Below are positions 13,691 through 22,230 of a stretch of DNA of 64,000 bases, in pieces. This DNA comes from a bacterium. Its GTDB lineage: Bacteria > Patescibacteriota > Minisyncoccia > Moranbacterales > DUUL01. The translations under genes and the position numbers were made by a program. The stretch spans positions 81,288-145,287 of the forward strand of contig JABGXP010000014.1 in the NCBI GenBank assembly GCA_018675685.1, in the 5' to 3' direction. Below the pieces are notes generated by a model. It was not told where the DNA came from. It saw only the letters and a program-made list of their open reading frames with translations, and did not search any database. The stretch's first letter is position 1; each line of letters begins with the position of its first letter.

Positions 13691-13909
13691 ATGAATGCAT
13701 TGGTTCATGAGGTAGCAAAAGCTCTTTTTCTTACGGGAGCATTAGGTTTTTTAGTGCTTATAGTTGTGTCAATATATGGAGCACACAGAAAAAAACGGAG
13801 CAACGAAGATGGAATGCTGGACTATAAAAGGGATCTCAGACCTGTTTATTGGTTGCTTGCAACAATGGCGTTGATGATATCTGGAATTGGTTTGGGAATT
13901 TTTTTCTGA
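13691..13909 (+). CDS. hypothetical small membrane protein (2 TM)
   Basis: AGGAGA lies upstream of the ATG. Two hydrophobic helices (LFLTGALGFLVLIVVSIYG; VYWLLATMALMISGIGLGIFF). A strong hairpin follows the gene. Confidence 0.45.
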   Translation: MNALVHEVAKALFLTGALGFLVLIVVSIYGAHRKKRSNEDGMLDYKRDLRPVYWLLATMALMISGIGLGIFF

Positions 13910-13935
13910 CAACAGAAATTTTGTGAATATTTTTA

Positions 13936-13980
13936 AAAAGGCATGAACTAGAACTTCTAGTGCATGCCTTTTTACTTTTT
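13936..13980 (+). terminator. rho-independent terminator
   Basis: Long near-perfect hairpin aaaaggcatgaactagaa / ttctagtgcatgcctttt, followed by a T-run. Confidence 0.6.
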
Positions 13981-14091
13981 GATTAACAGAAATCATTTTT
14001 TATAAGGATTTATTTGAACTATTTTTGAAATTATAACCAAAGTTTTTAATAAATACAACATTGCGGAATGAAGATTCTTTCATGTCAAGAG

Positions 14092-14120
14092 TTGACACCA
14101 TCCCAATGCAAGATTATAAT
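14092..14120 (+). promoter_or_regulatory. putative promoter of nrdR(-nrdD)
   Basis: TTGACA (14092-14097), 17-nt spacer, TATAAT (14115-14120). Confidence 0.55.
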
Positions 14121-14147
14121 GTAGTAGTGTCATGGAGTACTTGATTG

Positions 14148-14163
14148 ACACAACATATTGTGC
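14148..14163 (+). promoter_or_regulatory. NrdR box
   Basis: ACACAACATATTGTGC is a 16-nt near-palindrome. By my count it matches about 14/16 positions of the published NrdR-box consensus acaCwAtATaTwGtgt. It lies between the promoter and the nrdR start. Confidence 0.5.
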
Positions 14164-14197
14164 TATTATGTAGAAAAGAGTTAAATAAAACAAAATT

Positions 14198-14656
14198 ATG
14201 AAGTGTCCTTACTGTGGTCACAAGGAAACGAAGGTTGTTGATTCGCGAGAAATTGAAGACGGAAAGACGATCAGGAGGAGAAGGGAATGTGAGAAAGTGG
14301 AATGCAAGTTGAGATTTTCAACATATGAGCAAATTGAAACACTAAATTCGACTGTGTTGAAGCGCGACGGACAAAAAGAAGAATATAAAAGAGAGAAACT
14401 AGAAGAATCAATTAGAAGGGCAACAAACAAGAGATTGGAAGAATCTCAAATTGCACAAATTATTTCATCCGTTGAGTCCGAACTACGAACAAAGGGAAAA
14501 TGTGAGATGACTGCAAAGGAGATTGGAGAAGTAGTACTAACACATTTAAAAACACGCGATGAAGTTTCATATTTGCGATTTGCTTCAGTTTTTAAATCAT
14601 TTGGAACAGGAAAAAGATTTGTGAAAGAACTCGATAAGTTGGAGGAAAAAGAATAA
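14198..14656 (+). CDS. nrdR: transcriptional repressor NrdR
   Basis: MKCPYCGHKETKVVDSRE zinc ribbon plus an ATP-cone. Confidence 0.92.
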   Translation: MKCPYCGHKETKVVDSREIEDGKTIRRRRECEKVECKLRFSTYEQIETLNSTVLKRDGQKEEYKREKLEESIRRATNKRLEESQIAQIISSVESELRTKGKCEMTAKEIGEVVLTHLKTRDEVSYLRFASVFKSFGTGKRFVKELDKLEEKE

Positions 14657-14764
14657 CAAAAAGATAAACACAAGAAAGGTAATTACATTTGGAAAGTTTT
14701 TGGCCAAAAATATTCCAATATTCCAATATCCATAATATATTAATTTTTGCGGGGGCAAACAAAA

Positions 14765-16894
14765 ATGAAAAAAGGGAAAAAACAGGTAGCTGCAAAGAAA
14801 GTGAACATTGCAAGAGCTACAAAAGGGGCGAAAACAAAGAAAAAAAGATTTGTACCGAAATTTAGCGAAGTTGTGAAAAGAGATGGCTCGGTGGTTAAAT
14901 TCTCTCAGAAAAAGATTTCAGAGGCTGTCTACAAGGCCTTCAAAGAGGTTGATGAGGGAAGTCTAGTGAAAGCAAGAGCTGTGTCAGAGAAAGCAGCTAG
15001 AATGCTGAGTAAGAACTGTGCACGTGGATATGTTCCGAGTATTGAAGAGGTTCAGGATACGGTTGAGAGAGTTTTAATGGTACTAGATTTTGAGGAAACA
15101 GCCAAAGCATATATCTTATATCGAGATAAGCGAAGAAAAATCAGAGACACAGAAGCTTCTTTGGAAGAAGCGGTTGAATTAGTGGATCAATACCTAAGAG
15201 AACTTGATTGGCAAGTGAAGGAAAATTCAAACATGGCATATTCCTTGCAAGGTTTGAATAATTACATTTCTTCAATTGTGAGTAGTAAGTACTGGATGGA
15301 AAGAATCTATGCAAAGAAAATTAAACGTTCGCATGAAGAAGGAGATCTACATATACATGACTTGGATAAATTAGCAGCTTATTGCTGTGGCTGGGATCTT
15401 CAAGATTTATTAAATAGAGGGTTCACAGGAGTTCCTGGAAAGATTTCCTGTAAACCACCACGACATTTTAGAACGGCGCTTGGACAATTAGTCAACTTCT
15501 TCTACACAACGCAGGGTGAAACAGCTGGAGCTCAAGCATTTTCAAACATTGATACATTGCTTGCACCATTTATTAAGTATGACAAGTTAGACTACAAAGC
15601 CGTGAAACAGGCTATTCAGGAATTTGTTTTCAATTTAAATGTTCCAACAAGGGTCGGATTTCAAACTCCATTTACCAATATCACATTAGACCTAGAGGTA
15701 CCAAAGATGTTCAAGGATCAGAATGTGATTAGGGGTGGTCAATTACAGGAAGACAAGTATGGTGATTTTCAAGAAGAGATGGACATGTTTAATCGGGCAT
15801 TTGCTGAAGTGATGAGCGAGGGTGATGCAAACGGAAGAGTGTTCACATTTCCAATTCCTACATATAACATTTCGAAGAAATTTAATTGGGATAACAAGAA
15901 TTTGGACAAAGTCTGGGAGATGACAGCTAAATATGGAATTCCATACTTTGCAAACTTCATTAATTCTGATATGGACCCAGAAGACGCTCGTTCAATGTGT
16001 TGCAGGCTAAGACTTGACAACAGAGAACTTCGGAAGAGAATGGGTGGCTTGTTTGGAGCTGCACCGCTAACAGGTTCAATTGGCGTTGTGACAATCAATC
16101 TTCCAAGAATTGGATACCTAGCAAAAGATAAAAAAGATTTCTATAAGAGATTAGATGTCCTAATGGATATCGCCAGAGACAGTTTGGAGGTCAAACGGAA
16201 GGTTATCGATAATTTTACAAAGAAAGGTTTGTATCCATATGCTGCATTCTATCTAGATGGGACGTTGCAAAGAAAGGGAAGTTGTTGGTCAAATCATTTC
16301 TCAACAATCGGCCTTGTGGGAATGAACGAGGCTGTTGTAAACTTGATTGGAAAATCAATTACCACAAAAACCGGAGTAAAATTCGCAGAAGAGGTTTTGG
16401 TTCATATGAGAGAGCGCATGATAAAATTCCAGACAGAAACTGATAATTTATATAACCTAGAAGCAACACCAGCAGAAGGAACAAGTTACCGACTAGCCCT
16501 CAAGGACCAAAAGCGTTTTCCAAAGATGATTTTTGCAAATAACGGAGCGGTAGAAGAAGGAGCTCAACCATATTACACAAACTCCTCGCAATTGCCTGTT
16601 GGACATACTGACGATCTATTTGAAGCACTGGACTTGCAAGATAAGTTGCAAACGAAGTATACTGGCGGGACTGTGCTACATGGATTTCTCGGAGAGCGAA
16701 TTAATGATATTAATACAACGAAAAGTCTTGTGAAAAAAATTGCCTCAAATTATGAGATGCCATATTTCACACTTTCTCCGACTTTCAGTGTTTGTCCAGT
16801 TCACGGGTATTTAACAGGAGAGCACAAGGCATGTCCAAAATGTGTTGCTCATTTGCCAGAGAAATATTCCAAGAAGTCTGCAGAGGTTAAATAA
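14765..16894 (+). CDS. nrdD: anaerobic ribonucleoside-triphosphate reductase (class III), large polypeptide lacking the glycyl-radical loop
   Basis: N-terminal ATP-cone (VVKRDGSVVKFSQKKISEAV), the conserved SMCCRLRLD...GGLFGAAPLTGSIGVVTINLPR core, and a C-terminal CPVHG...CPKC metal site. It then stops at TAA 16892-16894 without an RxxGY glycine-radical motif. The ATG at 14765 is preferred to the track's TTG at 14747. Confidence 0.88.
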   Translation: MKKGKKQVAAKKVNIARATKGAKTKKKRFVPKFSEVVKRDGSVVKFSQKKISEAVYKAFKEVDEGSLVKARAVSEKAARMLSKNCARGYVPSIEEVQDTVERVLMVLDFEETAKAYILYRDKRRKIRDTEASLEEAVELVDQYLRELDWQVKENSNMAYSLQGLNNYISSIVSSKYWMERIYAKKIKRSHEEGDLHIHDLDKLAAYCCGWDLQDLLNRGFTGVPGKISCKPPRHFRTALGQLVNFFYTTQGETAGAQAFSNIDTLLAPFIKYDKLDYKAVKQAIQEFVFNLNVPTRVGFQTPFTNITLDLEVPKMFKDQNVIRGGQLQEDKYGDFQEEMDMFNRAFAEVMSEGDANGRVFTFPIPTYNISKKFNWDNKNLDKVWEMTAKYGIPYFANFINSDMDPEDARSMCCRLRLDNRELRKRMGGLFGAAPLTGSIGVVTINLPRIGYLAKDKKDFYKRLDVLMDIARDSLEVKRKVIDNFTKKGLYPYAAFYLDGTLQRKGSCWSNHFSTIGLVGMNEAVVNLIGKSITTKTGVKFAEEVLVHMRERMIKFQTETDNLYNLEATPAEGTSYRLALKDQKRFPKMIFANNGAVEEGAQPYYTNSSQLPVGHTDDLFEALDLQDKLQTKYTGGTVLHGFLGERINDINTTKSLVKKIASNYEMPYFTLSPTFSVCPVHGYLTGEHKACPKCVAHLPEKYSKKSAEVK

Positions 16895-16945
16895 TTAGCA
16901 AATAAATAGTTTACATATTTAATAAAACCATAAAAAACAAAAAAA

Positions 16946-17224
16946 ATGGTAAAAGTTACAAAACAAAAAATAGGGGAAAGTGAAATAGTTTGTCATGACT
17001 GCGGCAAGACAATGGCGGAAGGTGACATGTGCGTGCCTTATGATGTGGCAAAAAAAACTTTCTACAAGTGCGATAAATGCTTTGTAAAAGATGATTCATT
17101 AAGAAATTATCAAGAGACAGAGGTTTATTCTAGGATCGTTGGTTATATTAGACCAGTGAAGCAATGGAATGTTGGGAAGACAGCAGAATACGCTGATAGA
17201 AAAGAGTATTGTGTAGAAGCTTAA
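16946..17224 (+). CDS. stand-alone NrdD C-terminal module: zinc ribbon plus glycyl-radical loop
   Basis: CHDCGK...CDKC followed by EVYSRIVGYIRPVKQWNVGKTAEYADRKEY, the canonical NrdD glycyl-radical segment. It is in the same frame as nrdD but separated from it by three in-frame stops. Confidence 0.75.
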   Translation: MVKVTKQKIGESEIVCHDCGKTMAEGDMCVPYDVAKKTFYKCDKCFVKDDSLRNYQETEVYSRIVGYIRPVKQWNVGKTAEYADRKEYCVEA

Positions 17225-17231
17225 GTTTGCT

Positions 17232-17265
17232 GAAGGTGTAACGAAAGTTGCACCTTCTTCTTTTT
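17232..17265 (+). terminator. rho-independent terminator after the nrdD module
   Basis: gaaggtg (17232-17238) / caccttc (17251-17257), followed by ttctttttt-like T-rich sequence. Confidence 0.6.
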
Positions 17266-17300
17266 ACCTAGAAAAAAGAAATTAAAAATTAAGAAGTAAA

Positions 17301-18368
17301 ATGAGAAAAAGAATCGAGAAGTTTAAGGAAACATTTCATGCCCAGTCCTTCATTGCTGGAATCGTCGCGATTGTTTTTTTAGCGGGACTGTTTGTTTTTG
17401 TTTCTAATTTTAGTTTGGGTTTTAACGCAGTTGGGATCTCTACAATGATCGGTGAAGATAAGGTTGCTAGTATAATGAAGGATTTAGTGGAAAATAATTT
17501 AACTAAGAAGGGAACAGATGTAGCTGTCGAGAATGTTGAGTTTATTAAGGAACTGGGATTGTATGAAGTTAAGATGAAGCTTGCTGGGAAGGCAGAAACT
17601 AGTGCTTTTTTAAGTAGGGACGGGAAATATTTTGTTAAAGAGGCTGCAAGTTTGGAAGAAATTAAGTCAAAACGTGAGGCTCAAGAAGAGGCTGCAGCTG
17701 GGGAAGCGGAAAGAAAAAGAGATATCAAGATTCCCAAAACCAAAAAACCTAATGTTGAAGTTTTTGTGATGAGTCACTGTCCATTTGGAACACAGGTGCA
17801 AAAAGGTTTTCTACCTGTTATCAAAAAACTCGGAAGTAAGGCGGATATAAATTTCAAGTTTGTGGATTATTTAATGCATGGAAAAAAAGAATTGACTGAA
17901 AATTTGAATCAATATTGCATTGAGCAAGAGGAAAATAAAAAATACTTGAAATACCTGGAATGTTTTTTGGGTAGCACAGGAGAGGCGAGTGATTCAACGA
18001 GTTGTATGAAGGAGTTCGGAATTTCTGAAAAGAAAATTGCAAGCTGCAGTACCAAAGTTGATGAGAAATTTCTCATAAGTAAGCAGTTCGCAGACAAAAC
18101 TACTTGGCAAGGAGGAAAATACCCGCTTTTTAATTTGCAAAAAGAAGAAAATGACAAATATAAAGTTGGGGGATCACCAACTATCGTGATTAACGGTGTT
18201 ACCGTTGAACCAAACCGAGATCCGAAGAGTCTTTTAAAAACGGTATGCTCAGCCTTTGAGGAGGCTCCAAAGGAGTGTGAAGAGGTCGTTCCCTCTCAAA
18301 CACCGTCTCCGGGATTTGGCATTGGGAAGGCCCCAACAGTTTCAAGTGATGGAGGTTGCGAAGAATAG
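17301..18368 (+). CDS. membrane-anchored secreted thioredoxin-fold protein (DsbA/GILT-like)
   Basis: N-terminal TM (FIAGIVAIVFLAGLFVFV). The segment VEVFVMSHCPFGTQ...INFKFVDYLMHG resembles the GILT/DsbA-type fold. It contains several conserved-looking Cys. The family assignment is tentative. Confidence 0.4.
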   Translation: MRKRIEKFKETFHAQSFIAGIVAIVFLAGLFVFVSNFSLGFNAVGISTMIGEDKVASIMKDLVENNLTKKGTDVAVENVEFIKELGLYEVKMKLAGKAETSAFLSRDGKYFVKEAASLEEIKSKREAQEEAAAGEAERKRDIKIPKTKKPNVEVFVMSHCPFGTQVQKGFLPVIKKLGSKADINFKFVDYLMHGKKELTENLNQYCIEQEENKKYLKYLECFLGSTGEASDSTSCMKEFGISEKKIASCSTKVDEKFLISKQFADKTTWQGGKYPLFNLQKEENDKYKVGGSPTIVINGVTVEPNRDPKSLLKTVCSAFEEAPKECEEVVPSQTPSPGFGIGKAPTVSSDGGCEE

Positions 18369-20901: not shown

Positions 20902-22230
20902 ATGTCAAAGAAAAAAAAGAAAAACGGGGGGCATGCAAAGAAAGAGATAATAGAATCAAACGTAAAAAAAGAAGCAATGAAAAAAGAAGACTCATTAAAG
21001 ACCGAGATGAAAAAAAGGGAAGAAGAAATCAAGGTGAACGCTGTCTCAAAAGAGGAAGTTAAATCAGAAGAAGAAATTGTTGGTCAAACAACACTTTCAG
21101 AATTGGATGAAAAGACAGAAAATCAAAAAACAATAAAAAATCTTGTTTCAGCTGTAATTTTGCTTTCAGGGATTGCAGTCGGTAGTTTTTTCGTTGATAT
21201 CGTCCAGTTTATGAGTGGTGATGGTTTCTCAAAGCGAGCTTTAGACAATTCCGAAGTATTGGTCGCAGGAGATCGAACCTGGGTAGCTTTTAATGAACCA
21301 GCCATTGATGTAAAAGTTTTGACTGTGAGTGAGGAAGAAATGAAGAATTGCAAGAATTGTGACACAAAGGAAGTGCTACTCTGGTTAAGGGATTACATTC
21401 CAACAATGGTAGTAAATAACGTGGATGCAGAATCAGAAGAAGGGAAGGCAATGATTGAAGCATATGAAATTAAATCATTACCAGCATTTTTCTTTTCTGA
21501 GGAAATCGAACAAACAAAGTTTTTCCAAGGTGAAGGTAGAGTTGTTTTCGCAGAAAAGAATGATTCTTTTATGCTAAATGCTGCTGGACTTGGAATCCCA
21601 GTCGGAAAGTATCTACAAACTCCTGAAGTAGGCGAAACAGATGCAATTCTTGGCAACAAAGAAGCGAAGGTGAAAGTGGTTGTTTTCTCTGATTTCCAGT
21701 GTCCATATTGTGGAGAACATTTTAAAAATGCAAAAGAAGCCGTTAAAGGTTTTAGCGAAGAAGAAGTTGCTCTTGTGTATAAAGACCTACCATTAAACTT
21801 TCATTTGCAAGGGAAAAATGCAGCAATGGCCGCAAGATGCAGTCAGGATCAAGAGAAATTTTGGGAAATGGGAGAACTGCTATATAGCTCACAAAAGGAT
21901 TGGCAGGACACTGAAGGAATTGCACAATTCAAAAAATATGCTAGAGAGCTAAAACTTGATACATTTAAATTTAACAAGTGTATGGATGATCGATCTGCAG
22001 AAGCTCTTGTTGATGAGGATTTGGCTCAGGCAAAGGAAATTGGAGTAACTGGAACACCAGCAACATTTGTTGGAACTCAGTTTGCAAGCGGAGTTGTTAC
22101 TGCACTAGAAATTAAAGCAATGATTCAAAATGAGTTGGATGGCGACATTGATGAGATGGACGCTGATATATTAGAAGATGTTTCAAGCGAAATGGAAGAA
22201 GAAACAGAAGAAGAAGTTAAAGTTCAATAA
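20902..22230 (+). CDS. membrane-anchored DsbA-family thiol:disulfide oxidoreductase
   Basis: TM (LVSAVILLSGIAVGSFFV). The C-terminal domain has VVVFSDFQCPYCGEHF (CPYC active site) and GVTGTPATFVG (cis-Pro loop region), typical of the DsbA family. Confidence 0.75.
   Translation: MSKKKKKNGGHAKKEIIESNVKKEAMKKEDSLKTEMKKREEEIKVNAVSKEEVKSEEEIVGQTTLSELDEKTENQKTIKNLVSAVILLSGIAVGSFFVDIVQFMSGDGFSKRALDNSEVLVAGDRTWVAFNEPAIDVKVLTVSEEEMKNCKNCDTKEVLLWLRDYIPTMVVNNVDAESEEGKAMIEAYEIKSLPAFFFSEEIEQTKFFQGEGRVVFAEKNDSFMLNAAGLGIPVGKYLQTPEVGETDAILGNKEAKVKVVVFSDFQCPYCGEHFKNAKEAVKGFSEEEVALVYKDLPLNFHLQGKNAAMAARCSQDQEKFWEMGELLYSSQKDWQDTEGIAQFKKYARELKLDTFKFNKCMDDRSAEALVDEDLAQAKEIGVTGTPATFVGTQFASGVVTALEIKAMIQNELDGDIDEMDADILEDVSSEMEEETEEEVKVQ

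Follow-up and report, generated by a model that had tools for sequence, protein, structure and literature searches.

Oxygen irreversibly cleaves glycyl-radical enzymes at the radical glycine. To our knowledge, the only known repair device is YfiD/GrcA, which serves pyruvate formate-lyase (PFL). [quoted passage not shown] Benzylsuccinate synthase (beta/gamma subunits) and 4-hydroxyphenylacetate decarboxylase (small subunit) likewise have small, Cys-rich, metal-binding partners encoded in their operons. These accessory subunits contain Fe-S clusters and no radical glycine, whereas the small protein of this study corresponds to the radical domain itself. YfiD is activated while free and afterwards binds cleaved PFL (PMC13450708). 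Whether spare parts exist for glycyl-radical enzymes other than PFL was stated to be unknown in 2021 (JBC, PMC8683613) and again in a review of June 2026 (PMC13450708). None of the literature that we searched, which did not include most subscription journals, describes an NrdD whose radical domain is split off or serves as a spare part.

In class III (anaerobic) ribonucleotide reductase (RNR), the radical loop dips into the barrel of NrdD and must swing out for activation, and the C-terminal domain contacts the activase NrdG (PMC4493059). Canonical NrdDs (T. maritima, 4COI/4U3E; P. copri, 8P23; T4, 1H78) share the ATP-cone, barrel, SMCCR finger loop and C-terminal Zn site with the enzyme studied here, and their loop, SRIVGYxRPVxxWNxGKxxEFxxR, is identical in kind to that of the small protein. 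However, canonical NrdD is one chain, whereas here a separate polypeptide carries the loop together with another Zn ribbon and has a longer linker. RNR catalytic subunits encoded by two adjacent genes are also known from phages, including NrdA-a/NrdA-b of Aeh1, which are split by mobE, NrdJ-a/b of phiYS40 and P60, and nrdD genes split by introns or inteins. For Aeh1, the two-gene catalytic subunit was shown to remain functional (PMC3653736, PMC3045599). Those splits occur in single phages and are due to inserted mobile elements or to fragmentation of unexplained origin. In contrast, the NrdD split described here appears to have arisen by duplication of the C-terminal module and subsequent loss of the resident copy, and it is clade-wide, recurrent and confined to exactly the radical module.

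Results

The window, which is the whole 64 kb stretch of DNA that was analyzed, comes from a bacterium of the candidate phyla radiation; positions refer to the window and all features are on the + strand. The initial annotation had described an NrdD of 709 or 715 aa that ends without an RxxGY motif, and ORF and profile checks bore this out. The large chain (14765..16894) is 709 aa from the ATG at 14765 or 715 aa from a TTG at 14747, and terminates at TAA 16892-16894. It contains an ATP-cone (14867-15136; PF03477, E 1.7e-20) and matches the Pfam catalytic core NRDD (PF13597, E 2.7e-185) over profile positions 1-528 of 562. Its scores exceeded the cutoffs of TIGR02487 (534 bits; cutoff 326) and of NCBIfam NF006126 (1032.8 bits; cutoff 548), the latter over profile positions 3-655 of 684 only. 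Judged by these three core profiles, the chain meets the class III RNR criterion of a ten-stranded barrel core. The criterion of a finger loop and a second active-site cysteine is also met at the level of motifs: the finger-loop SMCCRL is at residues 410-415 (15992-16009) and belongs to the double-Cys, Met-preceded type treated in PMC9669993, and the AAYCCGW cysteines are within residues 204-210 (15374-15394), of which C208 was invariant in our alignment. The chain retains a Cys-His-Cys-Cys metal site, CPVHGYLTGEHKACPKC, at residues 677-693 (16793..16843), which satisfies the criterion of a C-terminal Zn site. One ligand position is His throughout the clade, and the CPxHG...CPKC motif is kept in truncated relatives, in those that have a full-length enzyme plus a small gene, and in ordinary fused relatives. 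What is missing is the radical loop on the C-terminus of the same polypeptide. No RxxGY glycyl-radical motif occurs in the large chain, which stops 16 residues past the Zn site with the degenerate tail VAHLPEKYSKKSAEVK and its TAA (16844..16894), a probable relic of a lost radical loop.

The loop was found on a second ORF. As the initial annotation had stated, a 51-nt spacer with two further in-frame stops is followed by a same-frame ORF of 92 aa. The AT-rich spacer (16895-16945) contains TAG at 16907 and TAA at 16931, such that three in-frame stops of two kinds (TAA, TAG, TAA) separate the two ORFs. The small ORF (16946-17224) encodes a four-Cys Zn ribbon (C16, C19, C42 and C45; 16991-17080), a linker (17081-17119) and a glycyl-radical domain, EVYSRIVGYIRPVKQWNVGKTAEYADRKEY (17120-17209), with the canonical loop EVYSRIVGYIRPV and the radical glycine G66 (ggt, 17141-17143). 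In an AF2 model of the small protein (pLDDT 82.7), G66 was at the tip of the 59-62/67-70 hairpin. The small ORF matched PF13597 at positions 510-562 (E 1.1e-11) and NF006126 at positions 641-682, although NCBIfam gave only sub-threshold NrdD models. Thus, the domain content of the two chains is complementary with respect to NF006126 (3-655 and 641-682), whereas Pfam positions 510-528 of PF13597 occur twice, as each chain has a Zn ribbon. A PDB sequence search with the small ORF returned only spurious C2H2 or integrase zinc-finger matches, and the isolated model, when used for fold searches, matched only generic zinc fingers. A motif scan found only one glycyl-radical loop in the 64 kb window, that of the small ORF, which supports the earlier suggestion that the window encodes a naturally two-piece NrdD.

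The nrdR-nrdD-small region (3027 nt, stops included) was 100% identical in three independent assemblies (ENA ERZ23491529, NCBI GCA_018669615.1 and ENA ERZ27237544), and the exact 92-aa protein was indexed in 81 blocks of the sequence collection. The split is genuine and is not a sequencing error or artefact. Relatives were then informative as to whether the locus might be a dead remnant of a single-chain nrdD. Of the 120 nearest clusters, 83 were ordinary full-length NrdDs, the tail of the window's large chain looks degenerate and no nrdG is nearby, all of which a pseudogene or an assembly artefact would explain. However, the other 37 clusters were truncated as well, and a Zn ribbon and a longer linker would be unexpected in a broken C-terminus. 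Moreover, three close relatives (L006-L008) carry the same split, which the initial annotation had proposed as a check, despite pS values for the small ORF of 0.58-0.83. The corresponding pN was 0.08-0.15 (pN/pS ~0.1-0.2), and for the large ORF pN/pS was ~0.03-0.04 with synonymous sites saturated. As estimated from these ratios, both nrdD and the small gene are under strong purifying selection. The refuting conditions named in the initial annotation all spoke for the split: the independent assemblies agree, and although some relatives do have an intact single-chain NrdD, the copy in the window is not degraded. We therefore consider an artefact or a dead gene hardly credible.

We also considered the possibility that the two ORFs are joined during translation by read-through, codon reassignment or ribosomal bypass, as in T4 gene 60. 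In the window, L006 and L008, both ORFs share one frame, and the 51-54 nt gap in these loci is close to the 50-nt gap of gene 60. However, the three stops are of two kinds and do not permit continuous translation, and the spacer has no secondary structure (fold z-score −0.16). Among relatives, the small gene occurred in each of the three frames relative to nrdD (12, 13 and 8 loci), with gaps of 1 to 259 nt, whereas the start methionine of the small ORF was conserved. In addition, the upstream protein of 21 species is already complete, so fusion would merely produce a tandem duplicate, and viruses encode the small protein without an nrdD core in the locus fetched. Read-through and bypass were rejected on the variable frames and gaps and the unstructured spacer, and we assign virtually no weight to translational joining.

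Sequence signals are consistent with transcription of the two genes as one unit. Upstream of nrdR we identified a sigma-70-like promoter (14092..14120; TTGACA, 17 nt, TATAAT) that matches 12/12 consensus positions and is the sole perfect match within 13900-17500; its function is inferred from the consensus match only. The nrdR gene (14198..14656) encodes the repressor of nrd transcription, a 152-aa protein with Zn_ribbon_NrdR and ATP-cone domains (TIGR00244, 154 bits; cutoff 124.65). An NrdR-box-like palindrome, ACACAACATATTGTGC (14148..14163), lies between the −10 hexamer and nrdR. Although it is the window's only match to ACACWATATATWGTGT at ≤3 mismatches (it has 2), 0.93 matches were expected; since the count is not above chance, only its position speaks for it and the assignment is no more than suggestive. 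No terminator was found within the 51-nt spacer. An intrinsic terminator with an 11-bp stem, a GAAA loop and a T-run follows the small ORF (17232..17267; dG −18.8 kcal/mol, z-score −5.0), and 0/200 shuffled sequences folded equally well. From these signals, in the absence of transcript evidence, nrdR, nrdD and the small gene are predicted to form one transcription unit that terminates only past the small ORF. The initial annotation was correct that no Shine-Dalgarno sequence precedes the small ORF. However, its absence does not argue against expression, as such sequences are rare in this genome: GGAG or GAGG preceded just 5/47 long ORFs of the window, and the small ORF has an A-rich leader like those of neighbouring genes.

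A homologue search with the small protein gave 179 matches, of which the top 120 were all stand-alone proteins of 65-130 aa from Parcubacteria, Moranbacteria, Paceibacteria and Minisyncoccus. In a set of 1.84 billion representative proteins, the best 150 of 1590 matches were all ≤236 aa. Based on these matches, the small ORF is a member of a large, old and unnamed family of stand-alone NrdD-type radical domains. Across 115 homologues, C16, C19, C42, C45, L52, E59, Y61, R63, V65, G66, Y67, R69, P70, K78, E81 and R85 were invariant, including every loop residue that is conserved in NrdD. All 115 small proteins matched PF13597 and none matched PF01228, the PFL-type Gly_radical model. By these profile matches, the small protein is not a GrcA family member and is an analogue derived from NrdD, whereas GrcA/YfiD derive from PFL. 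The proteins also differ in that the N-terminus of YfiD is disordered, whereas the N-terminal part of the small protein is a folded four-Cys Zn ribbon, and in that the small protein, unlike GrcA/YfiD, is genetically linked to nrdD and nrdG.

The commonest arrangement among the species loci was a full-length NrdD with its own EVYSRVVGY loop followed by the small ORF (21 species). In about 12 species loci, including the window, a truncated NrdD that has lost the loop preceded the small ORF. In most family loci nrdG was directly downstream. The small protein qualifies by the GrcA criterion of being a stand-alone small protein that is essentially a glycyl-radical domain. A further criterion, coexistence with a complete enzyme that retains a radical domain, as found for GrcA/YfiD, is not met in the window, whereas it is met in the 21 species and in L089, a close syntenic relative with a 79% identical large chain. 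The earlier idea of a GrcA-like replaceable subunit is supported by the genetic layout in those relatives, with the correction that the small protein does not itself belong to the GrcA family. A partner enzyme without its own domain, as in the lineage of the window, is a state not described for PFL.

The large-chain tails of relatives form a graded series: VIEQKCEVYSRIVGY... (intact), EVYSQIVS* (L173), EIYSRVL* (L038) and KIYSKIVGVDENK*. In addition, the spacer of L174 keeps a frameshifted, nonsense-bearing relic, VVGYLCPTS*WNTGKAEEYANRKEFVT. By inference from this series, the window's own 16-aa tail is probably homologous to the lost loop. The ancestral layout, as shown by comparison of these loci, would be a full-length NrdD, the small gene and nrdG, similar to GrcA/YfiD, and the lesions showed that the resident domain appears to have been lost several times independently, with the window as one end state. 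The conclusion of independent loss rests on the distinct mutational lesions and not on tree topology, as our neighbor-joining tree is a rough distance tree. In that tree, one full-length-plus-small subgroup was located inside a grade of truncated loci. This nesting could instead mean that the resident domain was regained. We take the proposals of the initial annotation, a two-piece NrdD and a GrcA-like subunit, to be stages of one evolutionary story, which is supported by these data.

If the small protein substitutes for the lost domain, lineages without a resident domain should keep the small gene, a form of natural complementation. We chose five truncated and three full-length NrdDs by a large-chain search that was blind to the small gene. 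A small PF13597 ORF was downstream of 5/5 truncated NrdDs and 0/3 full-length ones. Selection was also apparent where the small gene is beside a complete NrdD (pN/pS 0.03-0.23). The same-codon fraction between the small gene and the resident domain was 0.80 within genomes vs 0.47 between genomes. Judging from this difference, the small gene undergoes gene conversion with the resident domain, which would keep both loops matched.

These findings also bear on whether a homing endonuclease, group I intron or intein split the gene, as in the genes-in-pieces RNRs of phages, where split nrdD, nrdA, nrdE and nrdJ are known and the Aeh1 pair is functional (PMC3653736). Several relatives do have inteins in nrdD. 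However, the spacer contains no ORF or intron-like structure, and an Rfam search of the window, spacer included, gave no match. In addition, the full-length-plus-small intermediate is the commonest state, and the pieces overlap, with a Zn ribbon in both, which indicates duplication followed by loss rather than insertion. With no element at the junction and overlapping halves, membership of the mobile-element split RNRs was rejected, and we regard such an origin as very improbable. The intein-containing ORFs of relatives are 1027-1604 aa, with PF14890/PF14528 matches on P0365 and P0378.

A remaining alternative is that the small protein is expressed and is not the radical partner of NrdD. Its role might then be to act as a decoy for NrdG or to regulate it, to store the radical, to bring in a different reductant or to serve another enzyme, and the truncated NrdD would either lack activity or have another radical source. 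The small protein differs from a mere duplicate of the resident domain, as di-cysteine tails (CxxC, CC or CxC) were present in 49/115 small proteins vs 1/83 full-length NrdDs. It also has an extra Zn ribbon and a linker that is 7 residues longer. Moreover, in three genomes (L037, L039 and L040) and most viral loci it occurs without an adjacent nrdD. However, the window's small protein has a single tail cysteine, and a truncated NrdD evolving at a pN/pS of ~0.03 needs a radical source, for which the small protein is the only loop in sight. The strict co-occurrence of truncation with the small gene, the invariance of the NrdD-conserved loop residues and the within-genome gene conversion also argue against a role apart from NrdD. 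We consider this explanation unlikely.

Discussion

Our computational data make it likely that the window encodes a two-chain class III RNR in which the small protein supplies the radical domain in trans; there is no biochemical, transcript or proteome evidence. We propose that NrdG abstracts hydrogen from G66 of the small protein, and that the small-protein hairpin would then enter the large-chain barrel and face the cysteines of the finger loop, the position taken by the covalently linked domain of ordinary NrdD. Both steps are inferred. AlphaFold2 on the concatenated chains with a 42-row alignment gave a model that was too poor to show docking (mean pLDDT 59.9, pTM 0.43). The proposed complex would hold two Zn ribbons, a feature that we counted against it. 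NrdG would be encoded elsewhere in the genome. The initial annotation had found no nrdG in the window, and we agree because no ORF of at least 80 aa in the 64 kb contains a radical-SAM CxxxCxxC motif. We also did not find nrdG in the stretches of 10-20 kb retrieved for the closest relatives, and with the NrdG of a relative as the query, the window organism's own copy was not identified.

By analogy with YfiD, oxygen cleavage at the radical glycine would probably destroy just an exchangeable 92-aa protein instead of a whole enzyme of ~800 aa. The same logic is expected as for GrcA/YfiD, namely that the enzyme's own activase activates the small protein and that the oxygen-cleaved domain is replaced, with both activation and restoration being inferred; the sole indirect support is that the small gene is kept in lineages whose NrdD is truncated (5/5). 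On this analogy, the small protein probably repairs the oxygen-cleaved enzyme in relatives that have a full-length NrdD. In the window, where the large chain no longer has a radical domain, the detachable subunit would be obligatory. An obligatory trans arrangement is most likely unless another RNR is encoded elsewhere in the genome. It is equally possible that, with a copy available in trans, losing the resident domain is neutral.

Tailed viruses, among them the archaeal virus ANMV-1, carry a longer form of the small protein as an orphan gene, and versions are also present on many IMG/VR contigs, which parallels Y06I of T4. No nrdD core was found beside the small gene in most of the viral loci fetched. 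The viral gene presumably re-arms the oxygen-damaged RNR of the host. We lean, by no great measure, toward a broader interpretation in which this widespread family is the first autonomous glycyl-radical cofactor outside PFL, serving as a backup in Patescibacteria, as part of an obligate two-chain RNR where its presence has repeatedly let the enzyme drop its resident domain, as in the window, and as an orphan in tailed viruses, one of them an ANME-1 archaeal virus, where it would re-arm the host enzyme. The di-cysteine tails of many members may have a further, undefined redox function.

The locus and its family are concrete spare-part candidates for the most fundamental glycyl-radical enzyme, anaerobic RNR. 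If our interpretation is correct, the radical domain of class III RNR can work in trans, and symbionts with minimal genomes that live at oxic-anoxic interfaces may use it to protect the synthesis of DNA precursors. The idea is directly testable in Minisyncoccus archaeiphilus, a cultured organism that has a full-length NrdD and the small gene. We did not find a dedicated model for the small protein in Pfam, NCBIfam or PHROGs. Automatic annotation calls the ~90-aa proteins either hypothetical or "anaerobic ribonucleoside-triphosphate reductase" and labels truncated large chains as intact, a mislabelling that, if the small protein acts as proposed, affects RNR surveys and viral auxiliary-gene catalogues.

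A separate ORF carries the radical loop of NrdD

The initial annotation had proposed that the nrdD ORF stops without a glycyl-radical loop and that a separate 92-aa ORF carries it. The ORF list, raw sequence, Pfam and NCBIfam all agreed with this description. The nrdD ORF starts at 14747 (TTG) or 14765 (ATG) and ends with a TAA codon at 16892–16894. It is followed by an AT-rich spacer of 51 nt containing in-frame TAG (16907) and TAA (16931) codons, after which the small ORF (16946–17224) begins in the same frame. The ATP-cone and the NRDD core are both on the large ORF according to Pfam and NCBIfam, with coverage of positions 1–528 of 562 in PF13597 and 3–655 of 684 in NF006126. The ends of these models (PF13597 510–562 and NF006126 641–682) fall on the small ORF. 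PF13597 positions 510–528 are present twice and correspond to the Zn ribbon, which is common to both proteins and reads CPVHG...CPKC in the large chain versus CHDC...CDKC in the small protein. The small ORF contains the sole glycyl-radical motif within the 64-kb window. As judged from sequence, the two chains complement each other in their domains and retain the conserved catalytic and loop residues. The NrdD of the window is a class III ribonucleotide reductase (RNR) lacking one defining feature, a radical loop borne on the catalytic chain itself.

The nrdR-nrdD-small ORF region was 100% identical, including the stops, in three independent assemblies. We conclude that the split is not an error.

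A perfect match to a sigma-70-like promoter (14092–14120) lies 5′ of nrdR (14198–14656), with an NrdR-box-like palindrome (ACACAACATATTGTGC, 14148–14163) just downstream from the promoter. The window contains no second match of this kind, though the count is not above chance. Neither a terminator nor an RNA structure was found between nrdD and the small ORF, and a strong hairpin terminator is located 3′ of the small ORF (17232–17257, dG −18.8, z −5.0). Judged from these signals, nrdD and the small gene are co-transcribed; expression itself has not been shown. The reported lack of a Shine-Dalgarno sequence before the small ORF is normal in this DNA, as GGAG or GAGG was found upstream of just 5 of the 47 long ORFs in the window. 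Starts in the window are preceded by A-rich leaders, and that of the small ORF is like those of the neighboring genes.

Elsewhere, the window consists of ordinary cellular DNA, with genes for DnaK, F-ATPase, PBP2, AcrB and PFOR among others, and the closest genomes are from Candidatus Moraniibacteriota (Patescibacteria/CPR). No further RNR was identified among the ten large ORFs scanned, and neither a tRNA nor an Rfam family was detected across the 64 kb. Since no ORF of at least 80 aa bears the radical-SAM CxxxCxxC motif, nrdG is absent from the window, as previously noted. Two thioredoxin-fold proteins are encoded nearby. One of 355 aa with an N-terminal membrane segment is immediately downstream of the small ORF (17301–18368) and gave weak GILT, Thioredoxin_4 and DF-family matches, while the other is a DSBA/Thioredoxin_4 protein of 442 aa (20902–22230).

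The small ORF belongs to a family of stand-alone radical domains

A search of 5.8 billion proteins with the small ORF returned 179 matches. The best 120 of these were all stand-alone proteins of 65–130 aa from Parcubacteria, Moranbacteria, Paceibacteria and Minisyncoccus archaeiphilus, labeled either 'hypothetical' or 'anaerobic ribonucleoside-triphosphate reductase'. An exhaustive phmmer search of 1.84 billion representatives gave 1590 matches, and none of the best 150 of these exceeded 236 aa. Across 115 aligned members, the four Zn-binding Cys and the loop residues E59, Y61, R63, V65, G66, Y67, R69, P70, K78, E81 and R85 were invariant. PF13597 matched all 115 proteins, whereas the PFL-type Gly_radical family matched none, and neither NCBIfam nor PHROGs contained a dedicated model for the small protein. 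On these comparisons, we assign the small ORF to a large unnamed family of putative stand-alone NrdD-type radical domains. An AlphaFold2 model built from the 115-member alignment (pLDDT 82.7) consisted of a Zn-ribbon hairpin (28–42), a short helix, a second hairpin (59–62/67–70) whose tip holds the putative radical residue G66, and a helix at the C-terminus.

By sequence comparison the small protein is more than a copy of the resident domain, the C-terminal glycyl-radical domain of NrdD itself, because its ribbon differs, its linker is longer and di-cysteine tails occur. The ribbon (CHDC...KCxxC) is unlike that of the large chain, and the linker is 7 residues longer. A di-cysteine C-terminus (CxxC, CC or CxC) was present in 49 of the 115 small proteins, for example ...EQSACATC, ...EGCACA and ...SKGCC at loci L013, L010 and L089 in alignment A2, compared with only 1 of 83 NrdDs of full length, whose tails are rich in Lys. 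The small protein of the window has only one tail Cys (KEYCVEA). The di-cysteine tails recall the redox-active C-terminal Cys pairs of class I and II RNRs.

The small gene accompanies two forms of nrdD

We scanned one genome per GTDB species, and the resulting 80 loci were analyzed by script. In 21 species loci, including those of M. archaeiphilus (L032/L002), NrdD is about 710–780 aa with its own C-terminal loop (EVYSRVVGYIRPV...RKEF), and a second loop is on a small ORF downstream. M. archaeiphilus AP038758, for instance, encodes an NrdD of 709 aa, a small protein of 92 aa and NrdG. In about 12 species loci (the window, L006–L010, L016, L022, L023, L036, L038 and L057) NrdD stops shortly past CPKC and the sole loop is on the small ORF, which answers the question of whether relatives share the split. 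The other loci, for example L042, contain an ordinary fused NrdD without a small ORF. In most loci the small ORF is followed directly by nrdG. A close syntenic relative of the window, L089 (PriA, Memo, NrdR, NrdD, small), has a large chain with 79% identity to that of the window and combines a full-length NrdD with the small ORF.

One alternative is that read-through or bypass joins the two ORFs into one chain. This is contradicted by the three stops of two kinds, the unstructured spacer, and the relatives, in which the frame relations cover all three frames with gaps of 1 to 259 nt and many of the upstream proteins are already complete. Another possibility is that a mobile element split the gene. 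Such fission is the known origin of split RNR genes in phages (PMC3653736), but it does not fit the empty 51-nt spacer or the overlapping halves.

Several loci differed from these arrangements. L057 encodes a minimal stand-alone radical domain of 49–52 aa without a Zn ribbon (L057:4968–5150) after a 179-nt gap downstream of a truncated NrdD. This locus seems to represent a clean fission that arose independently, and not the type with a duplicated ribbon. L037, L039 and L040 contain a small radical-domain gene without an upstream nrdD, which in L039 and L040 is preceded by a flavoprotein-like ORF of 419 aa and lies on a 957-kb contig. Related nrdD genes of 1027–1604 aa were found at L034, L035, L036, L052, L062 and L067 and in the large-chain matches P0365 and P0378; Pfam matches to intein/homing-endonuclease families (PF14890 and PF14528) were recorded for the latter two, suggesting inteins within nrdD of these Patescibacteria. 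Finally, 'binchicken' MAGs (L012, L015, L020–L023, L033, L036, L040 and L045) are titled uncultured Bdellovibrionales, Saccharibacteria or Gammaproteobacteria, but their nrdD-small-nrdG loci cluster with Paceibacteria and Moranbacteria, and their taxonomic labels look unreliable.

The resident domain was probably lost repeatedly

The 120 nearest large-chain clusters (at least 69% identity) comprised 83 full-length and 37 truncated proteins. Tails of the truncated proteins can be ranked in a graded series. Those reading EVYSQIVS, EVYSEIVS, QVYSRIVD and EIYSRVL, each followed by a stop, are all cut at or adjoining the radical glycine; others end in KIYSKIVGVDENK or continue as KVFSQVKRK..., and the large chain of the window ends in VAHLPEKYSKKSAEVK. 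Because the lesions differ among truncated NrdDs, we infer from these sequences several independent losses of the resident domain. The truncated state is also scattered in a rough NJ tree. In this tree one subgroup with both the full-length NrdD and the small gene is nested inside a grade of truncated loci, which could alternatively reflect a regained resident domain.

At L174 the large chain ends in ...CPKCVIEQSCEVHLA with two consecutive stops. In another frame of the spacer between nrdD and the small ORF (L174:6040–6270), VVGYLCPTS-stop-WNTGKAEEYANRKEFVT is still readable and is nearly identical to the intact small-ORF loop of the same genome. This stretch is what remains of the resident domain after a frameshift and a nonsense mutation. 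The locus thus captures the passage from a full-length NrdD with a small gene to a truncated NrdD.

Both chains are under selection

Five truncated chains (P0348, P0346, P0301, P0277 and P0382) were taken from the large-chain search without regard to the small gene. A small PF13597 ORF of 86–103 aa was present 35–165 nt downstream in all five, compared with none of three full-length NrdDs picked likewise (P0295, P0305 and P0283). Among the species loci and the five picked chains, we saw no truncated NrdD that lacked a small partner. Synteny (PriA, Memo, NrdR, NrdD, [small], RNase III, SMC) is common to L173, with a truncated NrdD, and L180, with a fused NrdD only.

Within the clade of the window synonymous sites are saturated (pS 0.58–0.83), whereas pN of the small ORF is 0.08–0.15, in the ribbon and loop halves alike, and pN/pS of the large ORF is about 0.03–0.04. 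Selection on both ORFs, the identical assemblies and the small gene behind each picked truncated NrdD exclude a pseudogene or an artefact as the explanation of the split. The small gene beside full-length NrdD is equally constrained (pN/pS 0.03–0.23), indicating that it is useful even when the resident domain is present.

Two loop copies from one genome have far more codons in common than orthologues have. In the Minisyncoccus-like group the same-codon fraction of the two loop copies was 0.80 within genomes versus 0.47 between genomes; in the other group the values were 0.54 and 0.46. These codon comparisons indicate gene conversion, seen at L025–L035 (for example L026, L027 and L035), that keeps the resident and small-gene domains interchangeable. 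The direct repeats arising from this conversion could in addition allow a deletion that restores a fused gene.

A possible mechanism for a two-chain NrdD

The C-terminal loop of known NrdD reaches into the barrel, where the glycine meets the finger loop; this buried glycine must swing out before H abstraction by NrdG, and the C-terminal domain touches NrdG (PMC4493059). In the case of pyruvate formate-lyase (PFL), PFL-AE activates YfiD, which then substitutes for the cleaved PFL domain (PMC13450708; PMC8683613). We propose that the small protein works similarly to GrcA/YfiD. NrdG would activate G66 while the small protein is free or only loosely bound, and the activated hairpin would then insert into the large chain; neither radical formation nor association of the chains has been shown. 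Cleavage by O2 would leave just a 92-aa piece to replace. The two-chain arrangement may be obligatory in the organism of the window, although absence of another RNR was not shown.

The case for a two-chain NrdD, or for a spare part, rests on comparative evidence only. A different role of the small protein, such as a regulator or reductant adaptor, is hinted at by the di-cysteine tails and cannot be excluded, but it would leave a constrained, loop-less NrdD without a radical source. With respect to the two readings initially offered, the two-piece NrdD was supported in the window and the GrcA-like layout, the same as that of PFL with GrcA/YfiD, was supported in the 21 species with full-length NrdD; membership in the GrcA family was not, given the absence of PFL-type matches. 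A 2026 review lists formate-lyases as the sole glycyl-radical enzymes with identified spare parts, with the existence of others 'yet to be determined' (PMC13450708), and our literature search, which did not cover most subscription journals, found no description of a split or spare-part NrdD radical domain.

Viruses encode orphan radical domains

Among the representative matches was a longer form (110–135 aa), which has a helix at its N-terminus and whose ribbon insert is larger. ANMV-1 (KP703175.1, 38.5 kb), an archaeal virus of ANME-1, encodes this long form (AJP62049.1; L091:4878–5312, equivalent to KP703175.1 25525–25959), annotated as 'anaerobic ribonucleoside triphosphate reductase', and no RNR is present among the other 68 of its 69 annotated CDS. 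A scan of IMG/VR confirmed 228 stretches. The NrdD catalytic core was found by tblastn in just 9 of the best 80 loci (L093–L172); the remaining 71 contained the radical domain with no core within the locus fetched (up to 6 kb on each side). Three viral loci checked against PHROGs contained tail sheath, tape measure, major head, primase and helicase genes. By analogy, the viral orphan looks like a putative spare part for the host RNR, and the orphan NrdD-type domain of tailed viruses parallels Y06I of T4, which serves PFL.
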